From assembly GCF_013122565.1 (NCBI RefSeq), contig NZ_CP053258.1: DNA of 64,000 nucleotides; one strand, given 5' to 3'. Source of the DNA: Escherichia coli. Its GTDB lineage: Bacteria > Pseudomonadota > Gammaproteobacteria > Enterobacterales > Enterobacteriaceae. Made by a program: the position numbers and the translations under genes. This document shows, one piece after another, positions 35,777 to 36,241 of the stretch (position 1 is the stretch's first letter; each line of letters starts with the position of its first letter). The notes beneath the pieces were generated by a model. The model was given only the letters and a program-made list of their open reading frames with translations. It was not told where the DNA came from and searched no databases.

Positions 35777-36241
35777 TCAATGGTTTTCTTCTGTCTCTTG
35801 GGTGAGGGTTTCCCAGTCGGCAGGAGGATGTCCTCTTTTTAACATTTTGCTGAATACGGTATAGGCATCTGTTTTTTTACCGTAGGTGCGAAGAGTGTTT
35901 TCATCGTTCATCCATCCCAGAATGATGACTTTCTCTTTTTCACTATAACGAAAGAAGAGACGATAACGACCAGCACCAAATTTTACCCATGACCAGTCTT
36001 TATTTTTCCCTGAGCCTAACGACTTGCCATGACGGAATGCCGGTGATGATGGATTGACCGTGATATGCTCCTCAATCACTTTGTGAACTGCCGCCAATAA
36101 CTTTGTGGCGGCTTTTCTCTAATAATTTTCAGGATCTTTTCCCTTTAATGTCTCGACTTCGGCAACTAAAGCGTCGTAGGTTTCCTGAAAACAGGGATGA
36201 GCATATAGCGCCCAACCATTAACCCTTTGTGGAAAATCCAT
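35777..36241 (-). pseudogene. yhaV: yhaV toxin gene (ribosome-dependent mRNA interferase) interrupted by an in-frame amber codon at codon 41
   Basis: Reverse-strand frame from the ATG at 36241 reads MDFPQRVNGWALYAHPCFQETYDALVAEVETLKGKDPENY, then TAG (36119-36121), then continues in the same frame as RKAATKLLAAVHKVIEEHITVNPSS… to the stop at 35777. The track ORF 35777..36097 is the downstream part starting at an in-frame TTG. Confidence 0.75.

Follow-up and report, generated by a model that had tools for sequence, protein, structure and literature searches.

The 64,000-nucleotide stretch of Escherichia coli DNA analysed here (the window) carries on its minus strand the PrlF-YhaV toxin-antitoxin locus, with the antitoxin gene prlF intact and the toxin gene yhaV interrupted by an amber codon. 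The features are collected in Table 1. Translated from 36241 to 35777, the yhaV frame reads MDFPQRVNGWALYAHPCFQETYDALVAEVETLKGKDPENY*RKAATKLL...EENH*; past the TAG it remains open for 113 further sense codons of YhaV-like sequence, up to the normal TGA. A preliminary description of this DNA had drawn attention to the in-frame TAG and to the resumption of the YhaV-like frame behind it, and the translation bears out both. It had also predicted a YhaV cut to 40 residues beside a whole prlF; this agrees with the translation and with the match of the antitoxin to its family model (see below).

Table 1. Coordinates of yhaV, its lesions, and the neighbouring features in the window
Feature	Position	Strand	Description	Basis
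agaR	34913..35722		Convergent to yhaV	
yhaV pseudogene	35777..36241	-	154 codon positions plus TGA stop, interrupted at codon 41; ATG 36241..36239, TGA 35779..35777	Translation
Downstream in-frame TTG ORF	35777..36097	-	106 residues (100 residues from the GTG at 36079); reported by gene callers; not credible restart products	
Codon 85, TGG (R85W)	35987..35989	-	Second lesion; arginine invariant in 25 YhaV homologs	
Amber codon TAG	36119..36121	-	Codon 41 (36121..36119 on the strand); ancestral CAG (Gln)	
Residual N-terminal ORF	36119..36241	-	40 residues; first strand pair and helix alpha1 only	
prlF, antitoxin gene	36241..36576	-	Intact, 111 codons; TAA (36243..36241) overlaps the yhaV ATG by one base (TAATG)	
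prlF-yhaV promoter-like site	36613..36640	-	TTTGCA-16-TATAAT; consensus match only	Consensus scan and upstream alignment
Variable sugar-utilisation island	36651..44493		7,843 bp; replaces a 73-nt segment between the garD stop and the prlF promoter region of KL53	BLAST of the KL53 and R32_14_1F loci against the window

When Gln41 is restored, the yhaV product matches the Pfam Toxin_YhaV family (PF11663) over its full length (residues 12 to 150, model positions 1 to 137 of 138, E 3e-53). As it stands, the frame does not run uninterrupted through the domain; with TAG at codon 41, the 40-residue product spans only about the first 29 of the 138 model positions. Nor are all of the family-invariant residues (W10, R85, K87, R92, R94, and others) kept in the window, where R85 is replaced by tryptophan. 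NCBIfam has no YhaV model, and neither the repaired protein nor the fragments had hits there.

The antitoxin gene shows the arrangement of a type II operon: prlF lies directly upstream, overlaps the start of the toxin gene, and encodes a protein that passes the NCBIfam PrlF equivalog model NF007429 over its full length (168 bits; cut-off, 125). The PrlF protein of the window is identical to that of strain KL53 (WP_001300560.1). The promoter-like site, which overlaps the palindrome AATGCATTTGCATT, is still present, 10 nt within the island junction. Upstream of prlF (36577..36650, minus strand), TAG and intact haplotypes are not alike: the former has a 1-nt deletion and three substitutions in the prlF promoter spacer, and four positions differ within 11 nt of the prlF ATG; the expression signals of the antitoxin thus also differ between null and functional haplotypes.

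The pair occupies its conserved chromosomal position between garD and agaR, but an extra 7.8-kb island parts prlF from garD, unlike in most genomes, so that garD lies beyond it. With gene names taken from a related island in R32_14_1F, the island encodes a DeoR/AgaR-like repressor, an ROK kinase, a Gfo/Idh/MocA oxidoreductase, a chbG-like deacetylase, a 6-phospho-beta-glucosidase, a chbC-like phosphotransferase system (PTS) IIC component, and a PTS IIB component. A related island was found in only 3 of 5,426 complete E. coli genomes, at 92.5% identity, which makes the version in the window a divergent one.

Distribution and ancestry of the amber codon

The complete E. coli genomes were searched with an allele-specific 34-mer, placed so that megablast finds no 28-base seed when the T is mismatched. 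The T allele (TAG41) was found in 176 of the 5,426 genomes (about 3%), and the same 34-mer with C (CAG41) matched 4,661 (86%). TAG carriers include BL21(DE3) and other B derivatives, E. coli C, ATCC 8739, O145:H28, O7:H4, and KL53. The resemblance to KL53 is close; over the 1-kb region, the two differ at 4 of 951 bases (99.6% identity), and KL53 shares the TAG. A yhaV allele at least 99% identical to that of the window is present in 138 genomes.

Among GTDB species representatives, a scan with a 20-mer allowing either C or T returned two relevant loci, those of E. albertii and Escherichia sp. E1V33, and six chance hits. Both outgroups carry CAG within an intact yhaV frame, and CAG is therefore the ancestral state. 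A sense codon at position 41, both in the outgroups and in most conspecifics, is what is expected if yhaV is a nonsense pseudogene, and the single C-to-T change from CAG that had been proposed for this stop accounts for it.

The TAG is a true inherited allele, and neither chance nor an assembly artefact. Nor is it confined to this strain: the polymorphism is old and recombining, and RefSeq already has the gene annotated as a pseudogene. All 13 TAG genomes that were fetched (13/13) have yhaV annotated as a pseudogene with an "internal stop," and each has an intact prlF annotated. The exact 40-residue peptide occurs on at least 1,000 public contigs, as does the 100-residue ORF with the GTG start, and the 106-residue ORF with the TTG start is the hypothetical protein ECB_02995 of REL606. 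In a full-text search of the literature, we found no paper that describes the amber yhaV allele; knowledge of it sits in database annotation. The window allele thus belongs to a known, already annotated pseudogene class, and what is new about it is limited to minor allele details.

The lineage itself is less familiar. Over the 16.6-kb conserved aga-region flank (20000..36650), the best complete E. coli genome is 98.7% identical to the window (TAG-bearing strains) and none reaches 99%, indicating that this lineage is poorly represented among the 5,426 complete genomes.

Additional lesions, recombination, and loss of the whole pair

For a comparison of alleles, we set 14 TAG alleles (those of KL53, the window, and 12 further fetched genomes) beside 7 intact ones, which span 96 to 98% identity. 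Q41*, V51A, and synonymous changes at codons 52 and 53 are common to all 14 TAG alleles; every one but that of the window has K43N as well, together with a synonymous change at codon 50. Conservation was judged against 25 YhaV homologs from many genera (49 to 79% identity to K-12), in which W10, R85, and R92 never vary and G9 is conserved at 90% or more.

Several TAG alleles carry changes at exactly these positions. Within the sample, R85W is found in the window, KL53, 33F4, and the B/C group, and W85 was seen only on TAG alleles; an allele-specific query finds it in 136 of the 5,426 genomes. A second stop, W10*, is present in C, BL21(DE3), ATCC 8739, 510016, MIN14, GF4, and VL7S7, and in 98 genomes by allele-specific query. 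Other changes were each seen in a single sampled allele: R92H in 88-3493, G9S in ESDR8, and R42S in 33F4; like K43N, these were seen on no intact allele of the sample. The counts of 136 and 98 nest plausibly within the 176 TAG genomes and are in line with the 138 genomes noted above for alleles at least 99% identical to that of the window. Among the seven sampled intact E. coli alleles, variation is limited to residues 31, 145, 148, and 153. The added disabling changes (W10*, R85W, R92H, and G9S) thus fall, in the sample, on stop-bearing alleles only, as expected for a nonsense pseudogene, and they lend support to the earlier suggestion that loss of the toxin with retention of the antitoxin reflects toxin-antitoxin decay. 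The W10 stop in 98 genomes is the clearest sign that yhaV is dead.

The substitution rates move in the same direction, with small counts: dN/dS is estimated at about 0.39 on TAG lineages and about 0.14 on intact alleles (Fisher p = 0.26), and the enrichment of replacements at conserved columns on TAG alleles is, again with small counts, not significant (p = 0.08 to 0.14). The pattern has the appearance of relaxed constraint, in the expected direction but statistically not established. Some TAG alleles, those of the O145:H28 type, have only the mild extra changes K43N and V51A and could yield active toxin on readthrough of the stop.

The history of the allele involves recombination. At sites 43/50 and 77/85, all four combinations are represented when the window, the O145:H28 type, the KL53 type, and intact alleles are taken together; the O145:H28, 88-3493, and FDAARGOS_943 alleles look, in their 3' halves, like different intact haplotypes; and the flanking garD protein differs between TAG genomes. 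Together, these observations argue that the 5' segment with the TAG has recombined into several backgrounds, which in turn implies that the allele is old. The window is ancestral at codons 43 (AAA) and 50 (GCG), and its allele is therefore either an early branch or a recombinant. Typical TAG alleles have six derived substitutions within 37 nt (codons 41, 43, 50, 51, 52, and 53), of which the window has four (36083..36121); the cluster of six could be a short imported tract or a multi-nucleotide event.

The preliminary description had placed yhaV at the edge of a variable island. Geographically this holds, with the junction at 36650/36651. A causal link between the island and the stop was considered and is rejected: all 13 sampled TAG genomes (13/13) have the ordinary garD-prlF spacer and lack the island, and the three complete genomes with the related island (loci L002, L030, and L031) lack prlF-yhaV. 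The window is the only example seen in which the TAG allele is joined to an island between garD and prlF.

Those three genomes have lost the ORF pair exactly (corresponding to 35769..36568 of the window, 800 bp) and keep the prlF promoter and 5' untranslated region. The junction lies in a short direct repeat, GCGGGCAT(T), with one copy over the prlF start codon and a second some 10 nt beyond the stop of yhaV. The arrangement points to a microhomology-mediated deletion or, alternatively, to the footprint that an old cassette insertion left behind. Toxin-antitoxin loss has taken several independent routes at this locus. In one of the three genomes (L030; RMDEC465), the chbC-like PTS IIC gene of the island is annotated as frameshifted (7711..9071), and the island is thus also decaying in places.

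Predicted product and competing explanations

A PDB sequence search returned no solved YhaV structure, and we used the AlphaFold model of intact K-12 YhaV (pLDDT 90) as a guide. The model has strands at residues 5 to 14, helix alpha1 at 16 to 35, helix alpha2 at 44 to 60, a three-stranded sheet at 84 to 111, and two C-terminal helices. Among solved structures, it is matched best by toxins of the RelE, HigB, and ParE types. Codon 41 falls, in this model, in the loop between alpha1 and alpha2. By analogy with RelE-family toxins, the 40-residue fragment, without the sheet that carries the invariant basic residues, cannot be expected to act as a ribonuclease.

The following course explains the findings best. 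An ancestral CAG (Gln41) would have become TAG, turning yhaV into a nonsense pseudogene of the PrlF-YhaV type II toxin-antitoxin pair. Translation, presumably coupled to that of prlF through the overlapping TAATG, would stop at codon 41 and release the 40-residue fragment, predicted to comprise the first beta-hairpin and helix and to be without alpha2 and the three-stranded sheet bearing R85, K87, R92, and R94; from the model and the family alignment, no ribonuclease toxin would be made. Drift after the stop would then have given the window R85W, and sister alleles W10*, R92H, or G9S. The stop-bearing 5' segment, an old polymorphism, would have passed by homologous recombination to several 3' halves and flanking backgrounds, and prlF would remain as an orphan antitoxin and autoregulator. 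This reading as a whole, a drifting and recombined nonsense pseudogene beside an orphan prlF, is one in which we have high confidence.

Consequences for other genes are likely to be limited. A polar effect is not expected, since no gene of the operon follows yhaV and agaR is convergent. PrlF and YhaV are reported to repress their own promoter jointly (PMC12107188, citing Schmidt et al. 2007); with the toxin lost, transcription of prlF is therefore probably partly derepressed and its autoregulation loosened.

Is the loss neutral? It may instead have been adaptive, with inactivation of the toxin and retention of PrlF favoured under slow growth or nutrient limitation and the null haplotype spread by recombination. 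This would refine the pseudogene reading and is compatible with it. Loss of function in yhaV, including truncation to 38 residues, is tolerated and was repeatedly selected in nutrient-limited chemostats (PMC5960147); the mutations that rose repeatedly, under nitrogen and magnesium limitation, were IS insertions and frameshifts, the latter with the 38-residue product (PMC5960147). In nature, the TAG segment sits on several 3' halves and in several garD backgrounds, prlF is whole in every sampled TAG genome, and independent complete deletions of the ORF pair exist. Against this, single yhaV knockouts cost 8% in fitness and helped only when combined with phoQ L467P (PMC5960147), and the allele is found in only about 3% of complete genomes, many of them laboratory B derivatives. 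On balance, adaptive loss seems to us possible but unlikely. A more specific version, that the yhaV-null, prlF-intact haplotype is an old allele kept by selection, with the toxin lost, PrlF retained for a toxin-independent role (autoregulation or Lon-linked proteostasis), the haplotype moved between lineages by homologous recombination, and the window an early or recombinant form, is doubtful.

Readthrough of the TAG, by a suppressor of the supE or supF type or a near-cognate tRNA-Gln, would provide a low dose of full-length toxin and make yhaV conditionally functional. The lost codon is one for Gln, so that a Gln placed at UAG would bring back the ancestral residue; the base after the stop is an A (TAG A), a context favourable for amber suppression; and the downstream frame of the window is still open. 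The allele data, however, speak against it. Programmed readthrough or recoding is expected to leave a conserved stop with purifying selection downstream. Here the stop is not conserved (CAG in 4,661 genomes and two outgroup species), and it is surrounded by second stops and replacements of invariant residues, changes intolerable in a functional gene (W10* in 98 genomes; R85W in 136 genomes and the window). The allele is also carried by BL21 and E. coli C, which are standard non-suppressing hosts. A tRNA scan of the window found no tRNA gene, and hence no suppressor tRNA there. We regard readthrough as very improbable. The preliminary description had qualified the truncation with the phrase "unless the strain carries an amber suppressor"; the truncation by the TAG stands, but a suppressor would not give wild-type toxin here, since even a suppressed or repaired TAG would still yield a protein mutated at the invariant arginine (R85W).

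Restart of translation at the in-frame TTG (36097, codon 49) or GTG (36079, codon 55), giving an active truncated toxin of 100 to 106 residues, is less credible still and is rejected. Gene callers report both ORFs, and public records name them toxins. However, neither start is preceded by a Shine-Dalgarno-like sequence. All 24 diverse full-length homologs examined (24/24) keep the N-terminal strand and helix, with W10, F18, L25, and V29 invariant, and the PF11663 model begins at residue 12; no full-length homolog starts at the TTG or GTG, so that functional homologs with a downstream start, which would have undercut the truncation, were not found among them. The restart fragment would be without beta1, alpha1, and part of alpha2 and would bear R85W. 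Nearly all of the short database entries listed come from E. coli or Shigella and are fragments at least 85% identical to K-12 YhaV; they do not form a natural short family.

That the TAG is a sequencing or assembly error of the window deserves almost no credence and is rejected, since the identical substitution, on a near-identical haplotype, turns up again in 176 complete genomes sequenced independently in unrelated projects and is linked in the window to V51A, the synonymous codons 52 and 53, and R85W.

With yhaV taken as a nonsense pseudogene, the strain should be recorded as one without a functional YhaV toxin and with an orphan PrlF antitoxin. Automated toxin-antitoxin censuses in which the 100- or 106-residue ORF passes for a toxin give too high a count of PrlF-YhaV. 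BL21(DE3), REL606, E. coli C, and ATCC 8739 carry the same allele as the window and are therefore natural yhaV nulls, which is relevant to comparisons of K-12 and B physiology and persistence. The succession of Q41*, then R85W, then W10*, together with the whole-pair deletions elsewhere, makes a tidy case of stepwise toxin-antitoxin decay. Beyond such bookkeeping, the stop matters little; this is ordinary gene decay, and the inactive variant is already marked as such in about 3% of complete E. coli genomes, among them BL21 and E. coli C.

Comparison with known systems

The closest relatives are the alleles of KL53, 33F4, E. coli B (REL606 and BL21(DE3)), E. coli C, and ATCC 8739, which share with the window TAG41, V51A, R85W, the PrlF protein WP_001300560.1, and the agaR neighbour, at 99.4 to 99.6% nucleotide identity. 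They differ from it in having K43N and the synonymous change at codon 50, where the window has the ancestral AAA43 and GCG50, and in having the ordinary 148-nt garD-prlF spacer, where the window has the island; unlike the window, the B, C, and ATCC 8739 alleles also carry the second stop W10*. The TAG alleles of O145:H28, 88-3493, ESDR8, and FDAARGOS_943 resemble the window in the amber codon 41, V51A, and an intact prlF, but unlike the window they keep R85, and their 3' halves are like those of various intact haplotypes, which points to intragenic recombination.

In K-12, PrlF-YhaV (b3129-b3130) has the same locus, operon layout, stop/start overlap, and RelE-like toxin family, with yhaV 97.8% identical at the nucleotide level. 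Unlike the window, K-12 has CAG41 and R85 and encodes an active toxin of 154 residues; its promoter spacer has one extra nucleotide and three substitutions, and the region of the ribosome-binding site differs as well. The yhaV mutants evolved in the laboratory (PMC5960147) are similar to the window in their early truncation (38 residues, compared with 40) and in keeping prlF. They arose, however, by small deletions or IS insertions in K-12 chemostats over hundreds of generations, whereas the window carries a long-standing natural point mutation. A further parallel is the orphan higA without higB of E. coli NRG857c and CFT073 (PMC7232551), in which, as in the window, the antitoxin outlasts the toxin; in those strains the higB gene is absent, whereas yhaV in the window is still a recognisable pseudogene.
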